Assembly: GCA_045837725.1 (NCBI GenBank) | Contig: JBEWZL010000098.1 | Location: forward strand, 124,001 to 188,000 | DNA length: 64,000 nucleotides | From: Vermamoeba vermiformis | Lineage: Eukaryota | Direction of reading: 5' to 3' | Shown: positions 6,711-60,780 of the stretch, in pieces | Position numbering within the stretch: position 1 is the stretch's first letter | How the letters are laid out: each line of letters opens with the position of its first letter | The notes under the pieces: generated by a model | Told to the model about the DNA's origin: nothing | The model's input: the letters and a program-made list of their open reading frames with translations, nothing else | Database searches by the model: none | Translations under genes and position numbers: made by a program

Positions 6711-7775
6711 ACGAGTAGCGGGAATTTATCCCTTGAGCAACTTACGATACAATTCATATGGTTCTAAGTTAAGCAAACTCTAACGTAGAACTGGGGCCGG
6801 TTGCGAACTTAGTTGGCAGCTAATAAACGTACTTCGCAAGACGTGACCTTTCGTCACAGATTGATCGCAGATTGATGTTGTGGTATGAAAAACTATTGGG
6901 GTGCGCTTGGGATAAATAAAGGTGGCAGACATCCATAAAATGACAGGTATCGAAGAAAGAGCCATTTTACAGCATATCGTTTTATGTCGTTTCCACATTT
7001 CGGCGTAACAGTTATAACTTTAGGAGAAATCAGTGCACTTCGATCAGGTATTGTCGATAGTATAATTTGATACGATTGGTTTGATTAAGCAGTCCGCACG
7101 TAGACCTCAGAGTTTCGAGCGAGATATATAAAAACAAGAACTTTTGACCGATTGCCGCTGTTACGCACTTTGCTCCGTCCCTTATTACGCGTTGGTTGCA
7201 ATTTGGATGTCATTTCTCGATTGAATCGAAACGAACAACAGAAATTGATGCTGCTTATGACACACGCCAATTAATCAATGCACTGAACGCGGTCAAATTC
7301 AGCGATGAAAAAGAACCGAGAAGCGCGCCAAATCTACTCAGTTTGGTAAGTTAATAATTTTCGCAAATATAACTGTGATAAATTCATATAAAATGATTGC
7401 ATGAATTTTAATCATATTTGTACGTATTTGAAGCGAACGTTGAAATTGATCAATCAAAAAATGGCAAAATCAATTAAAATTGCCTTTGCAAATTAATAGG
7501 GCGATAAATATAGGAACAAAAGTGCTTACGCAATTCTCATAGCTGAGCTTTCGCCATTAAAAAAATATGTCCGTAAATTTCCCTCCATATTTTTGGACAG
7601 CCAGAGATAAAAGAATGGTTCTTTGTGGTTCTCATTTACACAAAATCTTCGTACCAAAAGAGCAGTAAAGGTCCGTCCAGTATTAACTCTTTCTACGCCA
7701 CTACACAAGTCAACTTCGCGATCGCCGATCTGGATTCGTTACCTGAACTTCGTTATCAACTCAAACTCAAACTGC

Positions 7776-10508
7776 ATGATGGATCTTCACCAACACCACA
7801 AAGCGTCACAGGGTAAATTAATTCTAGTTTCCAATCGCTTGCCCGTGCATGTTGACATCAAATCCGATAACACCATTCAATTTCGCTCGTCTGCCGGTGG
7901 CTTAGCAACAGCGTTGAATGGGTTTCATAAAGACCACGCTGGTTCACTATGGGTCGGCTGGCCTGGCGTCATTCCACTTGAGCACCGAGAGGAAGTCAAG
8001 AACAGATTGCTCACCGAGTACGGTTGCTATCCAGTGTTTTTAGAGGAAGATCTCGTTGAGAAATTTTACGACGGCTTCTCTAATAACACTTTGTGGCCCT
8101 TATTTCACTCATTCCCTGCTTACACGAGATATCTGGACAGCGAATGGGAGGGTACGTAGAATTAATCCAAACTGGAATTTAATTTCTAGCGACGCGAAAT
8201 GAAACTAATCATTTAATTGTAGCTTATAAGGAAGCTAATGAACTATTCGCTAAGGCAATTCTCGAAGTTGCAAGTTCAGGAGATTGCATCTGGATCCACG
8301 GTAAGTGACAGTTTAGCTTAGTGAGTCCGAAAAAGCACCGCTCGTTCTATCTGAATCTCGAAATTTAATTCAACGTGCTTCAATTTCACTAAAATTCCTC
8401 GCGAATTTCTCAAGTCTAAAAGTCTAACACGTGGTTCTGACACGTGTCGCGGAATTTCCTTTTTTGTACTCAAGCAATGTTCACTAAGTTTCCTATACAT
8501 AGATTTTCATATCATGTTGCTGCCAAAGATCCTTCGTGAAGCATTGTCGGACTTGGTCATTGGATTTTTCTTGCACATCCCGTTCCCATCTTACGACATT
8601 TATCGACTGATGCCCTGGGCCAGTGAAATCACAGAAGCATTGCTCCGATCAGATCTCGTCGGTTTCCACACCTACGACTACGTGCAGAACTTTTTGGCCG
8701 TCGTACGAAGATCTTTGGGCATTGACAACAACTTGGGTGTCATCGTCCGTGATCAACTCGTGTGTCACGTGGATGTGTTCCCGATCGGCATTGACTTCAA
8801 CAAGTTCAACCTTGCAACTGAACATCCTGCTACACAAGTCGAGATGGAAAAAATCAAGAAGAGACATGACGGACAAAAGATCATTTTTGCGGTCAGTCGA
8901 CTGGACTACACAAAGGTAAGTCTATCATTTCTAAATTTGGCAAATAGTCTAACAGGTTTTTCGTAGGGCATTATTGAGAGTCTTCACGCATTTGAAACAC
9001 TACTAGTGACGCAGCCACAATACCAAAAGAAAGTGGTGTTCGTCCTCGTAGTTGTTCCGTCACGTGAACGCGTCAAAAGATACGCCTCGCTAAAGAAGGA
9101 AATTGACGAGTCCGTGGGCCGTATTAACTCTAAATATGGCTCATTTGAATGGCATCCAGTGCTCTATTTGTTCCAAAGTCTCACTTTCGCTGAGCTCACA
9201 GCATATTATTCCCGTGCTGACGTTGGTCTTGTGATTCCTTCACGCGACGGAATGAATCTCGTTGCAAAGGTGTGTAAAGTTTAAAAACGAAAATACGAAA
9301 GCGTAGCATCTAATTATGGATTAATTAGGAATATCTTGCCACTAAAAAAGATGCAGCGGGAGTGTTAGTACTTTCAGAAATGGCTGGCAGTGCCAAGGAG
9401 TTGCAAGAAGCTCTACTCGTTAACCCCAACAGCAAGCGAGAAGTAAGTTTGCTTACGAACCTGTTTGAGAAAGTTCGTGCTAAAAAACTGAACGCAGGTC
9501 GTCGAGGCACTTGACTACGCCTTAACGATGCCACTTGACGAACAAATGCGTCGCAACGAGCCAATGAGATCACGCCTTGAGGAGTACGATACGACTAGAT
9601 GGGGCAACATGTTCTTGGAACGATTGGACAGGGCACGTGATGCACGCAAAGAGCTGGTGTTCCGAGTACTCGATGCGACTATTCGTGATGACTTGCTCGA
9701 GAAGTGGAAGAACTCTAAAAGAAAACTCGTCATTCTCGATTATGATGGCTGCTTAGTGCCCTTTAATAGAAACTTGCAAGCTGCTTTGCCTGACCGTGGC
9801 CTCGTCGACGTAAGTCAGATCCGATCTGGAAGAACAATTACTGAGCAGTACTTAACCTTCATATTACAGTTGTTAGAACGCCTTGGCAAGAAAGAGGACA
9901 CTGAAGTGGTGCTGTTGACATCACGTGATCGCACCTTCTTGGAGCGTCATATGGGTCACACGCAACACATCACTTTGGTGGCTCAAGCGGGAGGTTGGAG
10001 CAGACAAGCTGGTTCAACTGAGTGGCAATCTGCCATCACCAACACCTCGCACATCTCCTGGCGCCAGCACATTCTGCCGCTCATGCAAATGACTCGCGAT
10101 CGCATCCCTGGATCTGATCTGACCGACGATGAGTTGACGATCACTTGGGACTGGCGTAGAGCTGATCCAGACACTGCTTTGACTGCCGCTAAGGAGCTGC
10201 TTGACGTGTTGATTCATCTCACCGCGAGCATGGCCTTGAAAGTAGCGATGACTCCGAAATCCATCGTCATTCGCGATGGACAGATCGGCAAGGGTACTTA
10301 CTACAATAATCAGCTTGCTAGTGATGAATGGGACTTTTTGTTGGCAATGGGCGAAGATTTCGAAGAAGTTTTTGCTTCGTTGCCTGAATCCGCTTATTCG
10401 GTACAAGTGGGCATGAAGTTGTCAAAGGCCAAGTGCAACTTTAAGACTGTTCATGAAGCTCGACAACTCTTAGCCACCTTGGCTGATGTTAAATCATTCA
10501 GCGGATAA
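7776..10508 (+). CDS. TPS: Trehalose-6-phosphate synthase/phosphatase (GT20 + HAD-like domain)
   Basis: [68 protein letters not shown] and a C-terminal LDYDG HAD motif; multi-exon. Confidence 0.95.
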
Positions 10509-11796: not shown

Positions 11797-14639
11797 ATGC
11801 AAGCTTTACTTGAACGAGCACGCAGAAAAAAGGAAGAAGAGGAGGCTAAAAAAATGGATTCTGATAAGCAACAACAGTTGCAAGAGAAAGTACGACTTTC
11901 ACTGAAATATTCAACTTTAAGCCGATCTGCATTCCAATCTAATTTACAATTTCTATAAAATAGCAACTTAATTATGCTATTAGAATTAACACCGATTTTA
12001 TTTGATTTTAATTTCAAAATTATTTTTAGTTTGCTCAGATCCAGCTTCCCGAGACTTCCTTAGGCCCTCCAGAAATTGATCCTAGTGAAATTACTATAGA
12101 ACGCGTATTAGGCGACGGTAGTTTTGGCACAGTCTATCAAGGTACGCAATTAAATCAAATAAACTTGAATTTTCAGAATTTTATGCACGCATTTATTTTC
12201 AGCCGTTATTGTCGTGGGAAATTATTATTTTAATTATTATACTTAATATTAATATTTACTTATGATTTATTGACAGGCCAATGCAGATCGAAAAAAGTAG
12301 CGGTCAAAAAGTTGATAAAACAAAACTTAGACGAGAAAGAACTTCAAGATTTTCGGCGAGAAATTGAAATATTATCGTAAGCATTATAAACAAATTAGTT
12401 GTTAGCGTTGTTATGAATATGAACCACAATCGAACGGATCTAAAAAAGGAAAATTTCGTACGAATTATTATTCAACAATTTTATTAATTCTTTTATTTTT
12501 AGCTCAATTTTTTCTCCGAATATTTGCTTGTTTATGGGTGCATGCACAGCGCCTGGAAATTTGATGATTGTCACCGAACTCATGCGCAGTGACTTGGAGC
12601 AACTGTTACAAGATGAAGGTACTATATATCATTATTAATACTATATATAATAATATATCGTTATTATTCGATTTGCTATCGGCTATTAAAATTTAGATTT
12701 TAATTTTTTCACGGTTGTTAGGCGTGCAGTTGACGCTGTTCATGCGCATTAAGATGGGCAAAGAAATAGCACTGGGCATGAACTGGCTGCACCAGAACAA
12801 GCCTACAATCATTCACCGCGATCTCAAGCCCAGCAACATTCTAGTCGATGAGAATTTGAACGTCAAAGTGAGCGACTTTGGGCTGTCACAGATCAAGTGG
12901 ACCAACGCGAAATTGAGCGCAAAGGGCGAGCCAGGCAGTGCTTATTGGTACGTACTATGATCTAATAGTAATACTATTTCATAATATACCGTTATTATAT
13001 ATTAAAACAAAATTGATTTTTTTATGCGACATCCAACTTAAACTTAATTATCGGCAATATTTTACATATATAATTCGTTAAATATATAATTCGATGGTAT
13101 TTTAATTATTAATTTTAACACTAATATTCGTTTGTTAGGATGGCTCCTGAAGTATTGATGGGCAAAGAATACACTGAAAAATGTGATGTTTACAGCTTCG
13201 GCATTGGTACGTCAAACATAAATTATACTTAAATGATAGTACTGTATTAATATGTACCTTAATATATAGTGCTGTGGGAGTTATTAACGCGCAAAAAAGT
13301 GCCTTTTGAAGAGTACGATGACTGGGACGCTTTTCTGGATGCAGTCTGCAAACAAAATCAACGACCAGCGATACCTAACGGCACTAACCCTGGGTACGTA
13401 CTACCACTTTCATATTATACCGATTATATAAACCAAAAAAGAATGTTGATAAAATGACGGATCTGGATCCGACGTTGATTTTTTGTTTTGTTGCAGGTTG
13501 AAGACATTAATTGAAGATTGTTGGGCCTCAGATGACGCAGCACGACCACCGTTCTCGGCCATTGTAAAACGATTGGATACTATTCTTATAGACATTGCGG
13601 TCATGGATCTGCAAGCCAACACCTTTTGGAAGAAATATTTCCCGACCAGAGTAAGCCATTGATTTGAAATTTCCTTATTTGGCAAGTACTCACCGGCCAC
13701 GCATCATCTTAGGACCAAGTGCCTTGGAAAGATTTCATTAACGAGCTCGGTCGGTTCTTGAAGTTGACCGCCTGCGTCAACTTTTCATCGGCGCAGCGAT
13801 GGGTCAGCACGGCACCCGTGAGCGAATTGATTGAAAATCACATGGACCTGTTGGAGGGCACGAATTTATCTGTAAATGTACGGTGCTTGAAGAGTTTGGT
13901 GGCGGATAAATTGAAGACAAGCCAGGGTGTCATATTGGACTCGGACGAAGAAGTTGTGGGACTAGAAAAGTTTGGCAATGTTATGAGCTGGTTCGGACCA
14001 ATGAAAATTCCGAATTCTCCGAACGAGGAAACTGTACTCGATAAGGTAGGCGAAAAAATAATTGCAAAGTTTACTAACCACAATTCTACTTCGCCTTTTA
14101 TGGAAATATTAACGGTTTTATCTCAGATCCGAGAAGTATTAGCGTGCAATTGGTTCCACGGTGATATTGGCACTAAAGAAGCAGAGCGAATGTTGATGGG
14201 TGAAATTCCCGGAAGATTTTTCGTCCGATTTTCAACGACAACACCTGGTGGATTTACTATTAGCAAAGGTACGTCGTCACTTCACTAATACAACTAGTCT
14301 TTATATAGATATCTTTCAACCGTGAAAAAATACGCTTGACACGTGTCAAAAGGTCGTTGATTTTGATGTTTTTTGTTCACAGTTGGCAAGAAGCCTACGG
14401 ACGCAGCGACGAGCATTCGACATCAACGCATATCACATTCACTGACAGACGACAAGTACACCGTGCACCCGTCGAATAGATCTTACAACACACTGCAAGA
14501 TCTGATTGCAGCTGAAACGAGTGAACTACAGTTGTTACATCCGTATCCTGGTTCAAAGTACTTGTCGCTGTTCGTCGAACAAGATGTGTCGGGCTACAAA
14601 GAAGAGCCGGCACAGCAACCAGGCGACAAGCCCAAATAA
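11797..14639 (+). CDS. shk: SH2-domain TKL dual-specificity kinase (Dictyostelium Shk family-like)
   Basis: [24 protein letters not shown] and WMAPE kinase motifs, with a C-terminal SH2 ([21 protein letters not shown]). Confidence 0.9.
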
Positions 14640-26099: not shown

Positions 26100-27801
26100 A
26101 TGTCCACGCTAATACTGGATTACAATGGGTTTAACACCAGCGCGTGGACCTTCGCTGCGGATTTGCTGGCAAAAGTGTTGGAACGACCAAATAATATTTG
26201 TTTATCACCCTTTAGCGTGCAAACCTGTAAGTACAACCCATAAATTTTTTAATAATCATGACAATCCAAAAATACGAGATCCAAATATCTTATGATAACA
26301 TTCCATTTTTATTCTGATTCAATCAGTTAATTAGAATATAAATAGTACGCATATTTAGATACTATATTTATTGAATATCTATACCATTAGGTTTTGCTTT
26401 GATTACCGAAGCAGCGGATGGAGACACGAAAAAACAGCTCATGGATGTGCTTAAATTCCCCGCAGACTATTTAACGCAATTCTCCGATATCTTGGACGCA
26501 ATTGACCAATCAGAATCGACCATTAAGATCGCTAATTCATTTTGGCTCAACGACAACTTCAAACTCAACAAAGAATTCATGTCAAAAATTTTAGAAAATT
26601 TCAAAGACGCAGAAGGCAGCGAATGCAATTTTAGTAGTGAAGATCAGAGGTCAAAATACGTATTAAAAATTAATTCGTGGGTCAGACAAAAAACTACAGG
26701 CCACATCCAAAAAATCATTCAGCACATAGATCCAGACGCAACTTTATTATTGGTACGTAGCACTATAATACTATAATTATATTATATTACCATATTTGGC
26801 TAACAATTAACGTTTCCAACGCTAGATTAATGCGGTATATTTTGATGGCATTTGGAAACACGCGTTCAAAGCGGAAAATACGATTAAAAATGCGGAATTT
26901 CGCGGACTAGACAGCAAACAGACTATCAAGACAGCAATGATGACGCAAGAGACGAAGCTCAAGTTCATCGAACATCAAGATTTTAAGGCCGTGATGTTGC
27001 CCTATGAAGGCGATGACACGTGCTTGTACGCGATATTACCTTCCAAATTAGGAAAAGAAGGGTTAGATCACGTGCTTTCTAGTGAATTTTTGACAGAGTT
27101 TTTGACGCGGCACAAAGAACAAATGAAACAAGAGACCGTTAACGTGAAATTTCCCAAATTCAAGTTTGTTAATGACTACGAAATGGTGCCTATATTAAAA
27201 TCAATGGGCATCGAGGATGTGTTCGATGACAGAATTGCGGATCTGAACAAATTGGTCGTGGGAAAAAGGTAAATTTTTTGCCTCACAAGTTAGACTATGA
27301 TTCTAAATTTAATCGCAATTTAATTTCTATATTGGACTCAAAATAGCGATGCTTAACATAACTTCTTATTAGGGGTTATAATATTGACGTTATTTGACGC
27401 GAAGATTTTTTTTTTCCAAATATAGTAATTTAATGTTTTTTCCTTACAGCGAAGGCCTGTGCGTGTCGCAAACGATTCACAAAACATTTTTTGAAGTCGA
27501 CGAAGAAATGACCAAGGCATCGGCCGTGGCAATCGAAAACGAGCTGTATAGTCATGACAACAGGTTAGAACGAGCTCGTAGCTTTGGTACCAAAGCAAGA
27601 AAACGCAAGCAAATGATGATAGTTAAAGAATTCAATGCCAATCGACCATTTGCATTCATTGTCTATCATCACCAGACTCAACAGATTCTATTTTTGGGCA
27701 AAATAATAGATCCGCTACACAAAGGTGATAACGATAAGAAACGTGCTGTTAATAGTATAGCTGAACTCACGGACGAGAATACAACCAAGAAAAAGAAGTA
27801 G
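26100..27801 (+). CDS. Serpin (intracellular) with extended reactive loop and basic C-terminal tail
   Basis: NICLSPFSV, INSWVRQKTTGHI, INAVYFDGIW, LPY, FPKFK, VDEEMTKASA and FNANRPFAFIVYH..ILFLGKI; no signal peptide. Confidence 0.93.
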
Positions 27802-32694: not shown

Positions 32695-34141
32695 TTAGTG
32701 GCGATATTTTTTCTTTGATCTGCCTCGGTTCTCATCCTCGTAGTCATCTCGCCCTCGTTTAGTACCAACAGCAGCTGAATAGGGTTCTACAGTCAATACT
32801 CTACCAATAAATAATATTTGCTCCGTCGAATGATGAAACACTATGAACAAAAAAGGACGATCGGCGTTGAACACTTCATAGTCTTTTGGACCGCGACTTC
32901 GACTGCGCACATCAACCTTAGTGACGGCAGCTGCTTTAGTGCCTTCTTCATCGACCTGAATGAACGTGCTGTGAAGTGCTTGTGACACGCAGGATGTATT
33001 TCGTCTTCATAATTATTGTTAGTATGAGCTTGACTGCTTAGAGTAGTTACTTACTCGTGTGTTAATTTGGATAAATCCGCTTTGTCATTATCGAACAAGT
33101 CTTTCAATCCCAATGACTTGAGAAGAGGGATCAGATCATGCAAGCTGTCAAACTTCAATTTAGGAAGCGACAGTTCAACTTTGCTCTTCTTCATTGTGTG
33201 CCTATGCACTGTAAAAAATTCGTGCAAAAAGTGTGCCGATGTTACGTGCTCGAACTCTGTGGTTGTGTTGCTGCTTGGGAGAATGATGAACATGCTCGTG
33301 TCGTCACCCTTGTAAGGCAGTGATATGGCACTAAATTGCAAGGTATTGATTATAGGTACGAAGCACTTTGATGGCTCTAAGTGCATCATGCTCGTTCTAA
33401 CTCTAGAGGCATTATCAAGAGTGCAAAAGTCAGCACCTCTGGTGTCAGTGGCCTCGAACTTGAATTTCCATTCTGCCTCAAAATAGACCGCGTTGAGCTA
33501 ATAATAAACATTAGTAAATTATTGATTTATTAATTAGATGTTCGTACCAGTATCAGCAGTGTTTGTGGATCAATTTGTTGGACTACATTTCGGATGTGGC
33601 CGTCGGTTTTCTGTTCAACCCAGTGGTTGATCCTGTCAATTGACCGCTTATTGTCGCCTATAAAATCGCATGACGATAACTCAGCGTCAACAAACGACTT
33701 CAGCAAAACAGTTTTATAAGCGACATCTAACTTTTTGCGATCTGTCATCCACAAAGAATTAGCTAGCTTAACGACAGCATGAGATTTTTTAATGTTAGTG
33801 AGGAAAGCCTCAACGTGAGCTAAGTAACCTTCGTAAAAACCAAAAACACTCATTAGTTCGTTTCTGGTGTTATTATCTGCTCCCTCAACTAGCATCGCAA
33901 AACCTAGTAGAAAATATTAGTATAATTCAGTAATGGAATTATGATTTTTTAAACAGATTAGGTCGTAAAGTAAAAATAAAATTAATTTTTAATGGATGTA
34001 CTTACAAAGGGCAATACTAATCGGTGCTACACAAATATTGTCTGTACTATTTTTGTTTTTCATAACTTCGAACAAGCGAGTGCCGAATGACATAACACTG
34101 CCCGACAACGAGTTTACACTAGCTTTGTTACTATTATCCAT
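32695..34141 (-). CDS. Serpin (intracellular) with canonical hinge, predicted P1-P1' Arg-Ser, basic C-terminal tail
   Basis: NICVAPISI, INHWVEQKTDGHI, LNAVYFEAEW and VDEEGTKAAAVTKVDVRSRSRGP..FNADRPFLF. Intron positions match the 26100 serpin. Confidence 0.93.
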
Positions 34142-35653: not shown

Positions 35654-37246
35654 ATGAGCAACACAAAAGCGCAGCACAATCCAGAAGAGAATTTAATTCG
35701 ATATGGCCAGCTCGAGGATGAGCTCGGAGGGTCTATTCGAACTGCAGAACGAAGGCTAAGTCAGGTACCTGACTGATTGAAGATCCACGATCTACCGGAC
35801 AAATTTAACAATTAATATAGGCCATTCATGCAAATAGATTAAAGCAAAAGGAATTACAAAGATTTGATAAAGAATACACCGATTTAGACAAGCTTTTGGA
35901 GGATCTGCCAAAAAAATTATCGCACAAAATAATGGTAAATCGAGCTCTATATTTTTATTACCCTTGTATTCATATTTAGACCAATTTGCACTTAACGCAC
36001 GCCTATTTGGATTTTTTAGAATTATTTGAAATTTTTCTAATATTTATCTATAGGTACCTCTCAGTACTGTAGCATTTATGCCCGGTGAAATATACAATAC
36101 GAACAAAGTTAAAGTATTATTAGGCGAAAATTATTTTGTCAAATGCTCCACATCACACGCACAGTCAATATTGCGCAGACGCCAAGATTGTACGTACTTC
36201 TACTCGTTCAATTAATTATAAGAGGTTAATTAAACTAATATCCGTCTATTATTAGTTATTAAGGAGAGTATGGCACAGATAGACAAGCAATTCAAAGAGT
36301 TGAAGACACGTGTCGGACTTACAACGGAATTGCTAGACGTGTCAGAGGTAAGCACAGTAGCAATAATTTAATAGGCATCATTGAGTATCGTGCATCGAAT
36401 CCGTATTTAATGATTTTGTACTTTAGGCGGACGATCTGGTCGAAATTCGAGAAGATTATAATTCAGACGAAGAGTCAACAGGTACGATCTTATGAGTATC
36501 ATATTGATAGCCCTTTGCGCAATAATCTGATTTTGTTTGGTGATTTCAGTGCCGTTGAAATTAGCGCCAGTATCACAAAAGCCCAAGCCAACAATAGAAG
36601 TGATTTCATCCAAGCCTGCGCAAGATGAGAGCGATGAAGACGACGATGAGAATATGCGCATGATCAACGAGTACTTGCGACGTGAAGAAGCAGATGAGGA
36701 AGAGGATGACAGCGATGAAGAGTATTTCGAACAAGATCCAGGCCCCGTGCAAGGCGTTCAAGAAAAGATGGCAAAACAAACCTTAAATAGCACTAAGCCC
36801 CAGACATCTGCGATTGTTACTGAAAAACAACCACTCAAGTCTGCCATGAAGCAAGCCAAGCCCGTGCTTGAAACAGAGGCAGATCTGGATATGCCTCCCT
36901 TAGTCTCTATTTCAGCGAACTCTGGCAAGGTCGTGGACCAGTTGCCGACTATTAAATCATCCGCGAGTAAGAGTGCGCCTAGTGAACCGAAGCCCGCGAA
37001 GAAAGGTGTCAGTTTTTCGGATCCGTCCCCGTTCAAACCTATCGTGGAAAAACCGATGCAAGATGACGAAGAAGAGGATAGATTTGTTGTAAATATGGTA
37101 AGTGATCCATTACATATCCGTTGCTGAATCATATGTGAGCTCACTGGCACTTTCTGTAGGCGAGTACCGTCAACACTAAGCCCGCAGCTAGCAGCGACGA
37201 GCCTCCAAAACGCGTATCAAAATTCAAGCAACAAATGTCTAAATAA
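35654..37246 (+). CDS. URI1: Unconventional prefoldin RPB5 interactor (URI1/Bud27-like)
   Basis: Alpha-prefoldin motif IMVPLSTVAFMPGEIYNTNKVKVLLGENYF, an acidic stretch, KGVSF and a C-terminal KRVSKFKQ box. Confidence 0.85.
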
Positions 37247-37511
37247 TGTACAGGTATTAAATTTTCATCATTTAATGCATTCAGAGTTCAAATTGACGGA
37301 TCCAACAAAATTAGAAATTTTTTTCGTTATTTCCATAATCCTCAAGTTCTCGAATCGCCTTGCTAATCTTTGCCCCGTAATAATATTGTTCCCTGATCTT
37401 GAGCTCATTTATTGGAAATCTTTTAGCGGAAGGAGCCCTTCCACCCCTCCGCCCCAAAAAATGTTTAAAAATAGCAGTATTGCCGCCTTTCATTTTTCTA
37501 AATAGAACTTC

Positions 37512-40500
37512 ATGAATACCATAACAGACCTTATTCCTCAAGTATCCTCGACAACGAGAAACATTCTCGGGGTGGCGATCGCGTCCGGGTTGGGCCTCGT
37601 TGCGCTCAATAAACTTAGGTCAAATCGGTCGCGACCGAAGAGACTGCCTCGAAGACCAGCAAATAGAGTTGTAAAGAACTCATGCGTCGACCTGGTAGCT
37701 GGATTTGAGCTGGATGCCGACCTTTTGGGCAACAAGGCGTACCATTTGACCAACTTGAAAGCGCTGCAACTCAATGTACCCAATGCATTCGTAGTAACAT
37801 CCGTGGTCTACGAGAGGCACATTGAGCGCTGCAATTGTGACGACTTGATTGCCAGCCTGGCAGACACAAGCTTAAGCGGTAAGATAATTATTATAAAATA
37901 TATACGACAGTAAATTGATTATGTGATTATATAGCACTGATTAAGTTTTTATTCCTAATAAATGCAATAAATTTAAATGTTAAATTTTCAGTGTGTTGAT
38001 GTTATTATTAGATCCTAATCTAAATTAACAGACGCTCAAGTTGAAGAAAATTGTCGTAAAATCAGAGATAGAGTTTTGTCAACGGAAGTCGCGCCAGACT
38101 TACTCGCAGAATGCCAGCAGTTCCTTTCTCAGTTCGAAGGTCCTCTCGGCGTCGCTGTTAGATCGAGTAGCAATCAAGAAGACTCAAAAGGAAAAGCTTT
38201 TGCTGGTCAATTCGAAACTTATTTGAATGTGTCTAAGAATTCTAAAGGTATTTTTTGTTAAGGTCAACTTCAGACCGTAAGACTTGCTCACGATATTTAT
38301 AGATGTTACGGATAAGATCAAGCAAGTATGGGCATCATTATGGACGCCACATGTCATATTATATCGTCGCAAAATGAACTCCAATGAAGTGTCCATTCAC
38401 CCTAAAATGTCCGTGGTCGTGCAAGAGATGGTAGATTCAGCCGTCAGTGGTGTCATATTCAGCGTCAATCCGTTTGGCATGTTCACTGAAGCAATGATCG
38501 AAAGTTACTTCGGTCAAGGCGAGTCACTGGTTTCAGGCGAAATTTCACCGGATCAGTTCATCGTCAACAGAGCTGATCGTAAGATCGTCAAGCAGTCCAT
38601 TGATGTGCATAAGAAGTACGCTATGTACGGTGAGTAATTCTCAAATTGCGGCCTTTGTTCTGCTCTAGGCTAACTTATCGGGAGCTGCAGCGAGCAAAGA
38701 TGGAGGCTTGGTTAAGACAGAACTTTCTCCTTCACTAGCCAAGTCACCTTCATTAACACCTGCGCAAGTGAAGCAACTTGTCGAGCTGGCATTAGAGGTC
38801 GAAAATGAGCTCGAGGCACCTCAAGGTAAGTTTTGTAGCTGGTCGATGAATCACACTCATTCGTTGCAGACATTGAGTTTGCGCTCGACAAGTCAGGCAA
38901 GATTTACTTGTTGCAAGCGAGACCTATCACTACGGGCACGAAGAAGTACTCCTTTTTAAAGGAATGGAAGGCACCAGGCCCTGGTACGTCCTAATGAAAT
39001 TGTCCAAACTGTAACTTATGAGATGGGCATACAGGTGTGTGGACCAAAGAAAATGCGCATCTTAACACGCCTGTCACGCGATTGTATTCCAAGGCAGTGG
39101 AAAAGAATCTGGTGGAAGGCATGCGCTACAGTTCAGCACAGATGTGCGCACCACTGGAAACAATTGAGCAAAAGACCGTCAATGGCTTCGTATATGGTGC
39201 TCCACGTAGTGTCGGCGCACCTCCTAGCGCAAACGGTAAGCGCATACTAATCAAAAGGTGACAAAGTTGACACGTGTCATCGCAGGACCCCCACCAAAAT
39301 GGATCTTTAAAGCACTTGTTCGCATTCACCCCACACTTCGCAAGCGTCTCGCTGGCATTGAAAACGTGTACAAAACCAAGGCTTGGCGCAAACAAATGGA
39401 GTGCTGGCTCAACGAAGACAGAGCTAAGTGCATCGATGGTACACTGGCACTGTCAGCTGTAGATGTCTCTGCACTCTCTGATGACGCGCTGCTAGCTCAT
39501 TTTGTCAAGTGCTACGAGAACGTACGTGACAATATTATTCTCGAGCAGCTAGATTCTAATCGTAGATCAGTGGGGCCTCATGATCTTCCATCATCACAAG
39601 TACACCTTCACCAGCATTACATCTGTCGGAGATTTCTTAGTCCACTTGAAGGAGTGGGGCATCGACTTAATTGACGGCATGCACTTGTTGAGTGGTTTGG
39701 ATCCCATCAGTTACGGGTACGTTAAACACAAGCACAAGGCGGGGTAGCTGACAGCATTATCTGTAGAGTCGAGACATTTGCAGTAGATGACGTATACAAG
39801 TCATTCAAGGAAGATGCCGATGCCCTGCATCTGTTGAAGAACTCCGAAGAAAAGCCAGAAATTGTGCTGGAGAAATTGAGAAACAGATCTGGACCGGTCA
39901 CAGAAGCACTTAAAAAATGTAAGTCAATCACTTGTTCTTGCAGTACATCTGTCTAACTACGACACAAGTCACGCTCCTCGCTGGATTTAGACCGAGCAAG
40001 GGCTACGACATCGACCAGCCAAGCGTCCAAGAAGTGCCGCACTTGTTCTTGGAGGGACTGAGAAAGACGTACGAGTACGGTGCCAAAGAGTTTGTGATCC
40101 CGTCTCCTTCACAAGAAGAAATCAACTCGGTCAGAAATCGCGTGCCGGAGAAAGGTATTATCGAGATTTACTTATTAAGCGTTAGTCTAACCCTGCCAGA
40201 CCGTGCGCTGTTCGACGAATTGCTCGCTGAAGCACAATACATGTACCCGCTCCGCGATCAACGAGCCATGTACGGTGACCTGCTGGCCTGCGGTCCATTG
40301 CGATTTGCAGTGCTTGAGATTGGAAAGAGACTGGTGCAGAAGAAAATACTTCCCAGGGCTGAGGTGCGCCAAAGCAAAATCAGATAAATTCACGAGTACT
40401 AACGCACGATTAGCTGGCTCTGAGTGCGAGTGACGAAGAGCTGACGCTGATGCTGAGCAAGCCCAACGAGGACCATTCAGCCTTGGCAGCACTATTGCAA

Positions 40501-41126
40501 GAATGGGACGAGTACAGACGTACGACTGACCCTGGCACAGTGCCCGAGTTCTTGGGCGGTGTGCCTGCTGAGCCACCTCCAGCTGACTGGTAAGTAAAGA
40601 ACTCTATAAGACAGAGGAAGGTCTAACACGAGTGCTAGGTTCCCCGACCCGTATTCACAACGCATGATGAAAGCCGTCTCGTTAGTTATTCCAATGGTTC
40701 TCAGCGCTGGTCGTCCAAATCCAGCTGGTCAAGCACTGGAAGACAAGAAACTTGTGGGCATTTCAGGGGCACGTGGTGTCGTTGAAGGACGTGTCAAACT
40801 CGTCAAATCATTGGACACGGACCAGCACAACTTCCAGAAAGGAGGTACGAGCTCACCGTATTATGGATAACTTATCTTATATTGACACGAACGTGACAGA
40901 TATCCTCGTGACGTACTGCACGTCATCCTCGTTCTGCTTGTTGCTGTCACAGAGTGCCGCTGTCATCACTGAAGAAGGCGGTGCTTTGTCACACGCAGCA
41001 ATCACCGCACGTGAGCTGCACATTCCTGCCGTGGTGGCTGCTAGGAATGCCATGCAAGTGCTGCAAGACGGCATGTTGGTGCGAGTTGACGGCAATGCTG
41101 GCATCGTGCACATATTGTCAGAATAA
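37512..41126 (+). CDS. PEP-utilising dikinase with rifampicin phosphotransferase/PigC-type domain order (ATP-grasp - substrate domain - C-terminal phospho-His swivel)
   Basis: LGNKA..L, VPNAFVVT, AVRSSSNQED..AFAGQFETYLNV, VVVQEMV, SGVIFS, GQGESLVSG, DIEFA and LLQARPIT, with C-terminal TEEGGALSHAAITARELHIPAVV (His at ~40992); many introns. Confidence 0.85.
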
Positions 41127-41189: not shown

Positions 41190-43959
41190 CTAACTGACGC
41201 GCACACGATTAGCCTCCCAGTTGATCAAACCAGGATAACTGGACTTGGTCTCCATGCTGAACAACAATGTTGCGCCTTCACGTTTCTGTTCAATGACTGC
41301 ACCGTGATCTTCTAAAAACTTTTTGCACTCTTCTTCGTTCTCAAAATGCAGTTCTTTAATAATAAATTCAAACGGCACTTCGGGTCGGAACCTGAAACAA
41401 GGTTAATCGAGCTGCATTAACCATGACTACGACTTGTGACTTACGATTTGCTCATGACTTTCAGCGCAATAAATCGCACGTCATCGAAGAGTGCTTCCAT
41501 AATGTATTGCCCCATATTCGGTGCTTTGTCATATAAGTTGAAAAAGCCGTGATAATCTTGCAAGAAAAATGCCCGTTCAACCTGATAGCAATAATATTAA
41601 TGGGTACAAGTCAATTCTAACGGTAATATAGTCGTATTACGTACTTGCATAGCGTGCTTGATAAACGCATTGCTTTTCATATCTTTCGTTAAATCTTTAT
41701 ACAATAATACAAGACCTAATCCATAGTGTTAATATATTTTTTCAGAGTGAGTCTAGTGCGCTACTTACTTGAATTGTTTCGCTCATACAATAAATACAAA
41801 ATTCTATACGCAGTGAACTCCATGACGTTGCCAGGCACGCCCATATTATACAACACTTTCAGATTGGACTGGCACTGATTGAACTCGATAATGTCGCCGT
41901 TCTCTAAACACAGCCGCGCGTGTGTCTCGTACACTTCGACAGCGAACTCGTTTTTGATGCTTTGTACCTGCACCACATGCCTGCATTAGTACGCGACACC
42001 TCGATGTTAGCAATCACAATGCGACTCACAGTGAGATCTTGTCGAATGGACTTCATTTGCTCGCAGACATAGTCCCAGTCCTCAGTGTTTTTCCACCGCT
42101 CTTTGACCATTTGAAAAGACTGTTTTAACACGGCTTCAGGTCTGACGGTTGACGGGTCTGGCACGCGTGTCAAGCGGAAATATTCTTTTTCTAGCGCCGT
42201 TGACGTGCCTTTTATGGTCATTTTATCCCAGTCAATTTCATCTGTCATCTAAAAAGATCAAGTGTCACATCAATAACACTTCCTATTTAGGCAATTACAA
42301 TGCCATTACGTACCGTGTCAATGAGCGGTCCTCGAACGGGCTGTGAGAACACAACAGGATTCTTTTTCTTGTGCTCTTTGTTGTCTTTTTGAAATCGTTT
42401 CCGCCGTTCATCTGCGCGCTCATCTTGAAAATTCTTTTCGATACTATATATGGGAATAACCTCAGTTGGTAACTATAATACTAATATAGTAATAATGCTG
42501 CGTACCTGGGTGCCTTCCTCTTGCCTAAAATAGTCACGGTGACTTTGCCAGGCCTGAACATAATTCACAAATGTTAGTAACAAAGTTAATATACCTAACC
42601 CAATGCTATAGTCAATGTGCGAGTATGAATCAACAACACATCGTTAATATAATGTTATAAATATCACGAACAATACGGGCACGGGCTCTTTGAGCCAATC
42701 TTTCGTGTTCAAATTGCCGTCAGTGATGGCCTGTTTGATGGCATCGCGCAACAAGAGCTCCATTTGACTCTTTTCTTCCTCGGCTAAACAAAGAAAGCAC
42801 GTGATTGGTCAGTTACTGCTCGTAGAATTATTACTTCACGGACTTACTTTCACAGGTCGCAAAAGATCGTTCAACATAAGCACGCACATCAGGGGTCCAA
42901 TTAACCCTATTTAACATAAAGGTAAGTAAATTATAGTGCTACATATGATAGACTAGGCACTTAAGCCACGTACGAGGACTGTTGTTGTTTTTGTTGCTGT
43001 TGGATCTGTTGTCGTTTCAATTTCCTCTGCTGACTCTTCGACAACTGCTGTGCAATGCTCGAGGCCTGTTGCACTTTGGTTTGAAAGTCGTTGTCGGGCC
43101 CTGGTGCCGCGCTATTGTTGTTATTGGGCTTGGGCTGTTGAGGCAACAGTCCTGCTGCGCGTTTTTGTGCCTCTAATTTCTTTTCTATTGATAATTAACG
43201 TTAATAACATGTTCCATATCTGTATATTGCCATTTCTCGGCAATGTTATACCGCTAAAATAATTAGCTAGATCTTGCCACCGTCAAGTCGCCCATCAATT
43301 ATATGTATAGTATAGTGTACTTACTGGCCTCATCTAATTGCTGTGCCTGTTGTATTGTCGGATAATTGTTCGCATAACTCGCGGCAGTGCTGGCAGCAGT
43401 TTGACCCGTGCCAGTGTACGTCGCTTGTTGCTGGTACTGCTGTGGCCAGTAGCCGTAATATTGATAGTATTGATAATATTGTTGGTACTATTAATAAATG
43501 TCATATGAGTAAGGCTATTAGATAATTACTGGGGTAGTACCTGCTCCGGCGTCATTTGTTGATTGTAACCATAATTAGCCCTAGTAGCGAAGATAAATTA
43601 ATATCTAGCTAGTTAAAATATATCATATGTAGTACCAAGCAGCGGCCCATTGTTGCTGTTGCGCATCAGTGCCAGCAGGCCAAGTTCCTGAAATTAATAA
43701 ATTGTAAACTTGTCCCAAAAATCGGAATAAATTTAATATAATATTACCTGTATTCTGTTGATATTGTTGTGTCATATTAGCCGTTTGACCTGGCGTAAAA
43801 CCGCCTCTATTCAATTATAAAATTAATTCAAATTCAGATCTCGATAATGGCCATGTAAATAGACCAAACATTACTATATTCATGCAAAGGGAAAATACAA
43901 AATTAATTATCTATTTCCTGTCCTTAAACGTACTGTTGAGCTGAGTTTGGATTTGACAT
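41190..43959 (-). CDS. LENG8: SAC3/GANP/THP3 family protein (LENG8-like)
   Basis: Gln/Tyr-rich N-terminus, then [55 protein letters not shown] and EFTAYRILY. Confidence 0.9.
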
Positions 43960-58550: not shown

Positions 58551-60780
58551 CTATTCTGATCTTGTCGGACCTCTGGGCTGTAACAAATTCTTCATGTACT
58601 CGTCGTGGCCGAACATGATAGAGATGTCGTCAATCAACTCGCGCAAGTCACGCTGTTGTGCCGCCAGTGCCTTTTGCATAGCCAGCCATGTTTGTCGCAT
58701 TGACACGAGATTGTTCACTCGAGCTACCAAGTCCATTGGTTGGAAGGGTTTGGCAAGGTAATCTTGCGCACCAGTCATGAGCATATTCACTTTGAGCTCG
58801 TCGTCAGCTTTGGCGGTGAGCATGATGATCGGGATAGCATCTAGTTCGCGACGAGATCGTATCTCCCCGACCATTTCATCTCCTGACATGCGCGGCATCA
58901 TGACATCTGTCACGACACAATCGGGAGTGTGATCAATGACACGTGCCAAGCCTTGCTCTCCATCGAACGCTGAAATGACTCGGAAATGTTCTTCGAGAAT
59001 GCTGGCTATGAATTGATTCATCGTCGGATTATCTTCGACTACCAACACTAATGGCTTCGTTTCTTCTGCTTGAAGAGATGCAATGTCATTCGACTTAACA
59101 GGAGCTGTGTGAGATGACAAGTCTGACACAGCTTGTCGGGCAAAGTCCGCAATGCGAGAGCGCATGTCCGAGTTACTCGACAGATTGCCTCGATTCACGA
59201 CAGCATTGACGACATGAGCACCCTCAGGGGCAGTGCGCGGGAATTGGATCTTCAACAGTGCCCCACCGAGTGACGTGCTGTGCGCGACCTCCACTTGACC
59301 GTTGTGCAGTGTCACTAACTCTTTCACGATAGCCAGACCAAGGCCAGTGCCGCCGTAGTTGCGTGTTGACCCTCCTTCGCCTTGTTGAAATCTGTCAAAT
59401 ATGACTTTCCAGAGCTCTTCTTTGATACCAGGTCCGGAGTCCTCCACGATGATTTCGATCAGTCCTCGAGGTCTACTCTCGCTTGGACCCTCGTGATTGA
59501 CTGAAACGAGCACGTGACCACCTTCAGGAGTGAATTTGAATGCATTCGAGAGTACATTGAGTAAGACACGTTCAACTTTGTCTGCATCCACTTGTGCAGT
59601 CCACGAGCCCTCCACATTGACTTCAAATGTCATCAAACGATTAGACGCTTGTAATTCGAAGTGAGCACAGACTCGGTGAATCAGTTCAGGGAAGTTGAGC
59701 TCTGAATAGCACAACTCGACTCGTCCTGCTTCCAGTTTTGAGATGTCGAGCAAGTCATTTACGTGCTGCATGACGTCAGTATTAGTAAATGACGGAAATT
59801 CTTAGTTTAGGCGGAATAATTATTCCAAAACGCAACTATACCTTTAAAAGGGTGTACGAGTTCATAACAACCGTTTCCAAATTCTTTTGTAATGTTGCGT
59901 CTTCGCGAACTTGTGGCAAGTCGAGCATCTTTTCAACAGGACCAAGAATGAGAGCGAGAGGTGTTCTAAGCTCGTGACTTACATTGGCGATAAATTGACT
60001 TTTTAACTTGTCAAGTTCCTGTCAGTGGTACATTAATACGAAATCGAATCAAATCACGATTGATTCAACTAATTTCGCTATTATACTCGTTGGTAGTTCT
60101 TAACATCTCAATAAATCGAAGCAAGCCGAAAAATAGAGCTCCACTCCGAAAATAAATTTGTGTAATCGGATGTGCTTGTGATAGGTACCTTGACACGTTC
60201 GTATAATGTTCTCAGCTCTTGATTTTTTTGCACTACTTGTGCCTCGGCAATTTTCTTCTCAGTAATGTCGCGACCTTCAGCCAACAAATACAATACTTCA
60301 TTCTTCTCGTTTAGCACTGGACTAAGCGAGAAATCAACTGTAATGATCTCCTCGCCGTGATTGCGCCCCCACGCATCGGCTTCATAGCGGACAAATTGCT
60401 TCGTTTCTATTGCTTGGTAAATTGCTTGGCGTAACTGCTTTGGCGTCTCAGGGTTAATATCCCACCAGTGAGTCTCCCTAGTATTGTATTAATTTTGATG
60501 GTTCACCGCAGCAAGTACACGTGCAGGCTTACCAAAAGAGCTTCCCCACCACATCTGACAACTCCAGGCCTGCTCCCCTGAGCGCAGGCAAGTTTGAAAT
60601 CAATACTCTTCCGTTAACTCCAATTAAAGAAACAAATTGATACATGTGGTCTAAAACGACGCTTGCATAATGCTGCTTCGCTTGTAAACCGATCGCGTCC
60701 TCGGCAGCTTTACTTTGACGCAACCGTCGTATCTCTTCGATCAATTCATCCCGTGACTTATTATCGAAATTATCGTCCAT
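58551..60780 (-). CDS. Hybrid histidine kinase PAS-HisKA-HATPase-REC, TodS/StyS-like
   Basis: Four exons. PAS ([33 protein letters not shown]), H-box [11 protein letters not shown] boxes (NAFKFT, DSGPGI, GTGLGL) and receiver (VEDN..VTDVMMP..LTAK..KPF). Confidence 0.92.

Follow-up and report, generated by a model that had tools for sequence, protein, structure and literature searches.

A stretch of 64,000 nucleotides of contig JBEWZL010000098.1 from Vermamoeba vermiformis, referred to throughout as the window, was analysed, and its forward strand was found to carry at positions 37512-41126 a split gene of 14 exons with a coding sequence of 2853 nt and a product of 950 amino acids. We consider it rather probable that what lies here is a eukaryotic gene, expressed and rich in introns, for a single-chain dikinase that contains a module of a bacterial two-gene family, designated H-I, and that starts with a leader probably serving as a membrane tether; H stands for the binding domain plus a phosphohistidine swivel, and I for the ATP-grasp domain. 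Judged by its sequence, the protein appears to be new in that it is eukaryotic, joins I ahead of H in one chain, is encoded by an intron-rich gene, and has a membrane-type leader, and it is predicted to work in the manner of rifamycin phosphotransferase (RPH) and HpeHI while lying outside RPH, PigC, and phosphoenolpyruvate (PEP) synthase. To our knowledge, only bacteria and archaea are known to have small-molecule dikinases of the RPH/HpeHI type, and a literature search, made partly with a loose query, returned no eukaryotic or amoebal member of the dikinase family. The known substrates of small-molecule dikinases are few, comprising rifamycins, prodiginine precursors, and phenols.

The exon model was obtained by joining stop-to-stop frame pieces at GT..AG sites and was then set by the contig joints of a public run from a related organism (run X5), whose spliced contigs include a longest record of 2292 nt that is ~96% alike and shows 61 differing letters across seven listed pieces. 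All 13 introns were supported by X5 joints with GT..AG ends. A total of 14 joints fell on the stretch, distributed over several contigs with depths of 6.8-8.5, and the fourteenth (37096>37159) belonged to the upstream neighbour. The gene is transcribed and spliced in at least the X5 relative. The introns measure, in order, 153, 55, 61, 44, 51, 50, 49, 50, 50, 45, 50, 49, and 55 nt; the seventh, for example, spans 39522 to 39570 (X5 joint 39521>39571). Translation starts at the ATG at 37512, which is the first ATG downstream of an in-frame stop, and ends with the TAA at 41124-41126, while X5 coverage begins at codon 11, the first 32 nt of the coding sequence lying outside the contig. When codons were compared with X5 (40 of the 70 differences were listed), 38 were changed, 29 of them synonymously and 9 nonsynonymously, and because 29 of the 38 changes are synonymous, the gene is regarded as being under purifying selection. 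An earlier note, written from the letters alone, had given exactly this start and this stop and had claimed introns, of which 13 were found, all seen as X5 joints. The peptides it quoted all occur in the translation, namely ILGVAIASGLGLVALNKLRSNRSR at residues 18-41, WKAPGPGVW, GPPPKWIFKALVRIHPTLRKR from residue 454, and GGALSHAAI. No second copy of the gene was present within the window, and an Rfam scan of the window gave no match. Bacterial contamination or a pseudogene had also been considered, and both were ruled out by the 13 spliced introns and the open frame of 950 codons. Regarding intron structure, nine of the 13 introns are in phase 1, including all of introns 1-6 (37879-39285), and intron 3 has tandem in-frame acceptors six bases apart (AG at 38683-84 and 38689-90), of which the distal one is used in X5; splicing at the proximal acceptor would insert two alanines.

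The product is composed of a hydrophobic-plus-basic leader, a PPDK_N ATP-grasp domain, a central domain of ~480 residues, and a C-terminal His-swivel followed by the stop, all encoded on the forward strand. Exon 1 (37512-37878) encodes residues 1-122 plus one base and comprises the leader and the first part of the ATP-grasp domain, with a PPDK_N match at residues 70-118 of 21.5 bits, under the 27-bit cut-off. The ATP-grasp domain continues in exon 2 (38032-38247; Pfam E 2e-14), which contains Arg166 in AVRSS and Thr185 in FETYLN, in exon 3 (38303-38629; E 2.9e-26), which forms its core, and in exon 4 (38691-38825), reached by the joint 38628>38690 with 61 nt skipped. Exon 5 (38870-38983) holds its end, marked by DIEFA with Glu351 and by LLQARPIT, together with the start of the central domain (WKAPGPG). 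The central domain then extends through exon 6 (39035-39235), which aligns with bacterial H subunits, exon 7 (39286-39521) with the GPPPKWIFKALVRIHPTLRKR segment, exon 8 (39571-39716) with an HHHKY motif, exon 9 (39767-39918), exon 10 (39969-40154) with the motif GFRPSKGYDID, exon 11 (40200-40363) with the 'block 9' phosphoryl-transfer motif LRDQR, and exon 12 (40414-40589), which also includes linker. Exon 13 (40639-40844) consists of linker and the start of the swivel domain, and exon 14 (40900-41126) of the phosphohistidine swivel and the stop codon. When Pfam was run on 11 reading-frame pieces, exon 4 being left out, PPDK_N matched four of them (those with exons 1, 2, 3, and 5; best E 2.9e-26), the mobile His domain PEP-utilizers matched only the last (E 6.3e-22), and the six central pieces gave no match. 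The stop codon directly follows the swivel, and the protein therefore has no PEP/pyruvate barrel, so that the layout proposed in the earlier note (ATP-grasp first, central domain, C-terminal His-swivel, no barrel) is borne out by the Pfam matches and the stop position.

This anatomy bears directly on the possibility of a central-metabolism enzyme of the PEP synthase, pyruvate phosphate dikinase (PPDK), or glucan-water-dikinase type. PEP synthase and PPDK have a homologous ATP-grasp and swivel and the same phosphohistidine swivel catalysis; the ATP-grasp and swivel of the window protein match true PEP synthases (8a8e, 9dae) at least as well as RPH, and relatives are publicly annotated as 'phosphoenolpyruvate synthase'. 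In PEP synthase and PPDK, however, the swivel is central, a C-terminal barrel follows, and a regulatory Thr is present, none of which applies to the window protein: its swivel is C-terminal, Leu905 stands in place of the regulatory Thr, and its central domain is homologous to the binding domain of the RPH/HpeH type. We regard this explanation as refuted by anatomy and give it almost no credence.

The domains shared with other dikinases were little help in choosing among families. The NCBIfam models for RPH, PigC, RedH, PEP synthase, and the PRK06241 subfamilies matched the ATP-grasp and swivel exons about equally, and against the PDB, exon 3 retrieved the true PEP synthase 8a8e (2.9e-18), HpeI (9goj, 8.3e-16), and the RPH of Listeria, RPH-Lm (5fbs, 2.1e-10), with the same pattern for the swivel (9dae at 3.1e-14). 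Since both domains match several families alike, they do not single out RPH. Among seven central-exon translations (exon 9 was left out), six matched no NCBIfam family and none matched an RPH, PigC, or RedH model, exon 11 giving a borderline match to PRK08296.1-1 (E 0.0094). To obtain information on the fold, an AlphaFold (AF2) model of the amoebal homologue P0031 was used, which had a mean predicted local distance difference test (pLDDT) score of 80.2 with a 25-row alignment. Its best full-length PDB match was RPH-Lm 5hv1 (E 1.4e-37, template modelling (TM) score 0.47-0.48), and the next matches, HpeI 9goj among them, spanned the ATP-grasp or the swivel alone. In this PDB structure search, no solved structure other than RPH-Lm covered the central domain of the model.

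The relatives of the protein were sought domain by domain. With exon 3 as the query, HMMER returned 7990 matches at E <= 1e-3 among 1.84 billion representatives, none at E <= 1e-30, and only two fragments exceeded 50% identity; a word-index search gave fragments 85% and 57% identical, situated on metagenome contigs as long as 497 kb and 659 kb. These two relatives were not among the matches listed for a metagenome scan with an alignment as query, where the listed matches were only bacterial and 33-49% identical. Among viral contigs, 89 pattern matches contained no true relative. For the central region (residues 388-860), a strong match was found in two of 153 fetched proteins, P0031 and P0062, the latter from a Luapelamoeba hula transcriptome. 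A central-region profile searched against 5.8 billion proteins within a size range of 505-2000 residues yielded 14 matches, three of them fused amoeba-type proteins (P0031; P0062 from Luapelamoeba; and P0174 from Vannella, MMETSP; names by source label, P0031 being unlabelled) and 11 of them stand-alone proteins of 544-568 residues. The latter consist of the central domain and the swivel without an ATP-grasp domain, and residues 384-949 of the window protein aligned end to end with all 11 at 28-35% identity and E values down to 2e-90. The earlier note's likening of the central domain to uncharacterised bacterial proteins is thereby supported. The only full-length fused relatives found were amoebal. 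Exon 7 as the sole query gave 242 candidates, none of which scored. The GPPPK segment (GPPPKWIFKALVRIHPTLRKR) is conserved in some of the 11 stand-alone proteins. Of the rows in an 84-row alignment, 16 of 75 other family members and two of seven fused bacterial proteins had it, and it was missing from the large bacterial subgroup as well as from the three other amoebal proteins. With respect to public annotation, pieces of the eukaryotic dikinase gene stand in public protein sets as 'phosphoenolpyruvate synthase', and in the 85% identical entries (P0001/P0161), prokaryote-style gene calls on large metagenome contigs (up to 497 kb) continue in frame across the equivalent of intron 2, which adds ~20 residues.

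From these alignments, the substrate-binding and swivel module (residues 379-949) can be assigned to a widespread, uncharacterised family of bacterial two-gene dikinases. The whole H protein is collinear with residues 379-949 (35% identity for P0179), and both share the motifs APGPG.W, GPPPK.IFK.L..HP..RKR, R[DE].R, and GRRL. The bacterial systems differ in being made of two polypeptides, H then I, whereas the window protein is a single chain ordered I then H; the bacterial I protein has a short ATP-grasp domain corresponding to PPDK_N positions from ~88-104 on, in contrast to the full-length domain of the window protein; and the bacterial enzymes have a major facilitator superfamily (MFS) pump or a cyclic-nucleotide-binding (cNMP) domain as partner. 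The window gene has introns and a leader.

Trees separated the window protein from the families with which it shares its domain order. The H-part tree (quick IQ-TREE run, LG+C20, 41 rows, binding and swivel part) included as references the Listeria and Streptomyces RPH, PigC encoded in a genuine pig cluster, and a PigC-like protein from Thioclava. The window protein, three amoebal proteins, and 26 bacterial H proteins were separated from the RPH, PigC, and fused bacterial sequences by a branch with 100% support in the Shimodaira-Hasegawa approximate likelihood ratio test (SH-aLRT), and FastTree with 83 rows recovered the same main split. In the ATP-grasp tree (61 rows), five amoebal domains formed a clade with 97% support, while I subunits (100%), RPH (99%), and PigC (95%) formed separate clades and Escherichia coli PpsA fell elsewhere. 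The backbone of that tree was unresolved, in agreement with a FastTree of 122 rows. The Listeria and Streptomyces RPH made a clade of their own, with 100% support in the H part and 99% in the ATP-grasp. Direct comparison by BLAST gave a consistent picture. Against a Streptomyces H protein, one match covered residues 379-943 (31% over 570 residues, E 3e-70); against Listeria RPH, only residues 71-370 (32%) and 838-948 (35%) aligned; and matches were likewise confined to the ATP-grasp domain plus the swivel for PigC of the pig cluster (31% in each) and E. coli PpsA (33% and 37%), the RPH values being no higher than those of PpsA. As far as sequences can tell, the nearest relatives are the H subunits of bacterial two-gene dikinases, not RPH or PigC, and the window protein groups in a clade with the Vannella-type and Luapelamoeba proteins. 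The simplest reading would be a single amoebozoan family of fused dikinases whose H module came from the bacterial two-component family. The earlier note had placed the enzyme in the RPH/PigC class; the domain order on which this was based holds, and the family membership does not, given that BLAST aligns only the ATP-grasp and swivel and the 100% branch intervenes. The phylogeny called for there thus puts RPH and PigC across that branch in the H-part tree and PpsA elsewhere in the ATP-grasp tree.

These results weigh most heavily on the idea of a true RPH orthologue directed against the rifamycins of prey or of neighbouring actinomycetes. The resemblance to RPH-Lm (5hv1, 5fbs) is considerable, as both are single chains with the same three-domain order, RPH-Lm gives the best PDB match to the P0031 model, and both share the Lys, Arg, and Thr of the ATP-grasp as well as the block 9 Arg and the catalytic His. 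The global identity to Listeria RPH, however, is 27.3%, compared with the >42% identity to RPH-Lm of the validated RPH clade A in PMC4844700, where a distant member of the RPH family is also said to have conferred no rifampin resistance. Furthermore, the scanned central exons matched neither NF041857 nor NF000283, the rifampin-binding domain of RPH with its 12 sequence blocks had no BLAST match in the central domain of the window protein, and the amoebal homologues P0031, P0062, and P0174 reached 243-275 bits on NF041857 (cut-off 999), with just the ATP-grasp and swivel contributing. RPH belongs to a different clade, has Glu667 and Lys670 in block 9 where the window protein has Asp and Ala, and carries no leader. 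An RPH orthologue is therefore disfavoured and, in our estimation, very improbable indeed. Hardly better is a condensing enzyme like PigC, RedH, or HapC that would activate a pyrrole aldehyde as part of a biosynthetic pathway resembling those for prodiginines or tambjamines, which we likewise disfavour as highly improbable. The domain order and the ATP-grasp and swivel families are the same, and the exon-wise PigC matches in NCBIfam (ATP-grasp and swivel) equal those of other families. Against this, alignment to pig-cluster PigC is limited to those two domains, PigC lies across the 100% branch, the amoebal homologues score 257-279 bits on NF052631/NF052632 (PigC/RedH) against cut-offs of 1300/1350 (266-279 bits where the cut-off is 1300), and the larger reading frames of the window include no pigment-pathway gene, leaving the gene without a biosynthetic context; the reference PigC from Pseudoalteromonas is flanked by PigD and aminotransferase genes.

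To gather information on the genomic setting of the bacterial relatives, one genome per prokaryote species was scanned, which gave 138 relatives, and the best 80 of these were examined (L081-L160). They came from Acidobacteriota (Thermoanaerobaculia), many Actinomycetota, Myxococcales, Burkholderiales, and others, and included metagenome-assembled genomes of Thermoanaerobaculia, Nocardioidaceae, and Solirubrobacteraceae. In 73 of the 80 loci, the swivel was followed on the same strand, at a distance of 30-400 nt, by an ATP-grasp match, the bacterial gene order being H (binding domain and swivel) then I (ATP-grasp). For six of the seven exceptions, the DNA ended at or within ~180 nt of the swivel match or there was no swivel match (L120, L140, L157), and in one (L090) downstream DNA was present and the ATP-grasp match was absent. 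A plasmid of Streptomyces sp. NBC_01001 annotated by PGAP shows the arrangement clearly, with H and I genes overlapping at stop and start and preceded by a helix-turn-helix regulator; the public names of the pair are 'PEP-utilizing enzyme' and 'PEP/pyruvate-binding domain-containing protein'.

Two kinds of partner accompany the bacterial pair. The first is an MFS transporter, counted in the 69 loci with >=1.5 kb of DNA past the ATP-grasp. Mutually orthologous transporters directly followed the ATP-grasp in 11 of the 69, as in-frame fusions in four loci of Thermoanaerobaculia/Acidobacteriota (L081-L084; e.g., L082:8830-10752) and as an adjacent gene in seven (L094, L108, L109, L115, L134, L135, L136). 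The fused transporter is DHA2-like with 10-12 hydrophobic segments, and the best NCBIfam family for these proteins was TIGR00711 (DHA2 efflux) at 128-186 bits, under the cut-off of 230 bits. The 11 loci include the lineage of highest identity to the window protein (L082, 36%) and carry the GPPPK segment of the window protein. Such a fusion of enzyme and pump suggests that phosphorylation is coupled to transport. The second partner marks the bacterial subgroup of greatest size: in ~32 of the 73 loci, the I gene has a C-terminal extension of 135-169 residues, and in all three cases tested (L095:8814-9920, L151:8800-9891, and L141:2292-3350) the extension was the Pfam domain cNMP_binding (E 1e-14 to 1e-18). 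The bacterial dikinases that bear it may be regulated by cAMP or cGMP. This hint at signalling, together with VadK, a PPDK-derived kinase reportedly present in Mycobacterium, raises the question of a protein acceptor or a regulatory enzyme. We hold that to be improbable, as the window protein has no cNMP-binding domain, the nearest bacterial subgroups are linked to MFS transporters and have the GPPPK segment in common with it, and characterised enzymes with the same binding-domain fold all act on small molecules.

The main rival to the interpretation given at the outset concerns the substrate. PMC12167813 reports the two-component layout of these bacterial loci also for HpeHI, CreHI, and PpsAB (phenylphosphate synthase), and the two-component small-molecule dikinases characterised there all act on phenols. 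The window protein could accordingly be a phenol-type kinase that, instead of detoxifying a phenolic compound, traps or scavenges it for catabolism, with prey or the debris of plants or lignin as its source. Like these enzymes, it combines an ATP-grasp component with a binding and swivel component, has the motif T/SxxGGxxxH, and is without the regulatory Thr. Its binding and swivel part groups with two-component H subunits, exon 3 is closer to HpeI 9goj (8.3e-16) than to RPH (2.1e-10), and the P0031 model also matches 9goj; this ATP-grasp exon match to the HpeI structure is the one sequence comparison made between the window protein and HpeHI/CreHI/PpsAB. The characterised enzymes differ in having separate subunits of ~71 and 40 kDa, known substrates that are phenolic, and operons for catabolism. 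Bacterial H relatives measure 544-569 residues against 71 kDa for HpeH, they score 74-154 bits on PRK08296 models with cut-offs of 578-730, and the inspected loci pair them with DHA2-like pumps or cNMP-binding domains, not with genes of aromatic catabolism; membership of the phenolic dikinases (HpeH/CreH/PpsA) is defined by ~45% pairwise identity among members and by action on phenols. A phenol-type kinase is unlikely in our view, though a serious contender. Should the substrate be an ordinary phenol, the locus would amount to a routine horizontally acquired catabolic gene.

When considering catalysis in the single-chain dikinase that we favour, the residues of RPH-Lm shown by mutagenesis to matter (PMC4844700) were mapped onto the window protein. 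Lys75 (37734-37736, forward strand), in the sequence GNK, corresponds in the alignments to Lys22 of RPH-Lm, the ATP phosphate ligand of RPH-Lm/PPDK (PMC4844700). Exon 2 follows the RPH ATP-grasp and the PEP synthases residue by residue, with AVRSS and FAGQ..TYLN kept, and the alignment to RPH 5hv6 and PEP synthases makes Arg166 and Thr185 the counterparts of Arg117 and Thr136 of RPH-Lm. Block 9 was mapped by a two-step alignment from REYPK (666-670) of RPH-Lm through REHHK of P0135 to RDQRA, which places Arg712-Asp713 (40253-40258, forward strand) at Arg666-Glu667, the Arg-acid pair belonging to the second active site. His907 (CAC, 40992-40994, forward strand), located in TEEGGALSHAA, corresponds to His825. 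The swivel motifs given in PMC12167813 are T/SxxGGxxxH for small-molecule dikinases and GGxTS/CH with the regulatory Thr for PEP synthase and PPDK; TEEGGALSH fits the former, with Leu905 replacing that Thr. By analogy with RPH (PMC4844700) and HpeHI/PpsAB (PMC12167813), the enzyme likely performs a dikinase reaction through phospho-His907. The ATP-grasp domain at the N terminus would bind ATP via Lys75, Arg166, and Thr185, His907 of the swivel would attack the beta-phosphate and become pyrophosphorylated, and the gamma-phosphate would leave as inorganic phosphate (Pi). The swivel would then carry the beta-phosphoryl group to the central domain, where Arg712 and Asp713 are situated, for transfer to a hydroxyl of the small molecule, with the predicted net reaction ATP + X-OH + H2O -> AMP + Pi + X-O-P.

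The leader is formed by a hydrophobic segment at residues 18-32, ILGVAIASGLGLVAL (37563-37607, forward strand), a candidate signal-anchor with a Kyte-Doolittle mean of 2.4 that is the most hydrophobic 15-mer of the whole protein on this scale, and by a basic tract at residues 33-56 (37608-37679, forward strand) with 10 Lys/Arg and zero Asp/Glu. It is contiguous with the ATP-grasp domain inside exon 1 and is contained in the X5 transcript from codon 11 on. Among the listed codon changes relative to X5, seven of eight in codons 24-49 and six of six in codons 24-35 were synonymous; because seven of the eight are synonymous, the leader is taken to be coding and constrained. All six homologues aligned lack it, having the ATP-grasp at the start or a short unrelated N-terminal extension, in keeping with the suggestion of the earlier note that it is an added element. 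In signal-anchored proteins of the mitochondrial outer membrane, the pattern is a short segment of moderate hydrophobicity flanked on its C-terminal side by basic residues. Applied to this leader, the positive-inside rule means that the enzyme would stay cytosolic. The leader probably tethers the enzyme to a membrane as a candidate anchor with the catalytic domains facing the cytosol. Alternatively, it could be a mitochondrial presequence, which the composition of residues 16-56 would suit.

Several observations weigh against the overall interpretation of an expressed, membrane-tethered fusion dikinase. Regarding expression, three RNA runs labelled as the same species as the closest DNA match gave 1, 0, and 2 reads on 4.4 kb with the coding exons bare, although three reads over 4.4 kb are too few to tell expression either way. 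The external searches of the window protein were done exon by exon, and the fold evidence comes from P0031, a proxy 33% identical to it. At the catalytic positions, GNK stands where RPH reads GGK, Lys670 of RPH-Lm is replaced by Ala716 (with Arg715 adjacent), and Glu667 by Asp, a replacement that also occurs in P0179, P0176, and P0062. The hydrophobic segment, Gly/Ala/Ser-rich and 15 residues in length, is short for a transmembrane helix, and the three other amoebal proteins have neither the leader nor the GPPPK segment. In the H-part tree, the four amoebal proteins come together with 84% support, and in another H-part tree their grouping was unresolved; the branches of the window protein are long, at 1.7-2.3 substitutions per site, and its fine placement is therefore unsure. 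As the amoebal ATP-grasp domains lie outside the I-subunit clade, the two halves may differ in origin. Finally, linkage to an MFS transporter is confined to the 11 of 69 loci, the others having a cNMP-binding fusion or nothing.

Our leading guess for the acceptor is a xenobiotic or secondary metabolite, not rifampicin in particular, that would be inactivated or marked by phosphorylation, and we hypothesize that the enzyme might detoxify prey-derived antibiotics, an idea whose one indirect support is the link to a DHA2-like efflux pump in 11 of 69 bacterial loci; the characterised two-component relatives phosphorylate phenols for catabolism instead. A more far-reaching proposal, which we put forward tentatively and consider quite unlikely, is that amoebae acquired a phosphorylate-and-expel cassette from bacteria, in which a DHA2 efflux pump accompanies the two-gene dikinase, and fused both enzyme genes, that the lineage of the window swapped the pump linkage for a signal-anchor, and that the enzyme, seated on an organelle or phagosome surface, inactivates a bacterial metabolite at the membrane of entry. 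If this were true, the protein would be the counterpart, in a eukaryote and tethered to a membrane, of resistance enzymes that modify antibiotics, and its target would be a class of compound without a known dikinase. More generally, the fused, intron-rich gene under purifying selection, here with a membrane-type leader, reveals a eukaryotic branch of the dikinases, and it draws attention to a bacterial subfamily, large and so far uncharacterised (138 relatives in one scan), whose partners are drug-efflux-type MFS transporters or a cyclic-nucleotide sensor. Identifying the substrate would establish a new way of handling a metabolite or xenobiotic through phosphorylation and would also test for acquired antibiotic-modifying chemistry in bacterivorous amoebae.

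The surroundings of the gene within the window contain several other frames. On the reverse strand, a 60-codon frame at 37311-37493 (MKGGNTAIFKHFLGRRGG...) starts 18 nt upstream of the dikinase ATG, with no Pfam match and no X5 coverage; if real, it would imply a very short divergent promoter common to both genes. The upstream neighbour at 36531-37300 (forward strand) encodes a very acidic Ser/Lys/Pro-rich protein with no Pfam match, and its 62-nt intron (37097-37158) is backed by an X5 joint. Downstream, the convergent gene at 41190-42248 (reverse strand) showed a weak SAC3/GANP match in two exon pieces (E ~4e-4, under the cut-off), and the only reads of RNA run X23 fell at the 3' end of this gene. 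By eye, the frames at 7611-10508, 13713-14288, 26375-27801, 33051-33497, and 58551-59801 resemble a trehalose-phosphate synthase/phosphatase, an SH2-domain protein, two serpins, and a hybrid histidine kinase, a set of genes that fits an amoebozoan genome.

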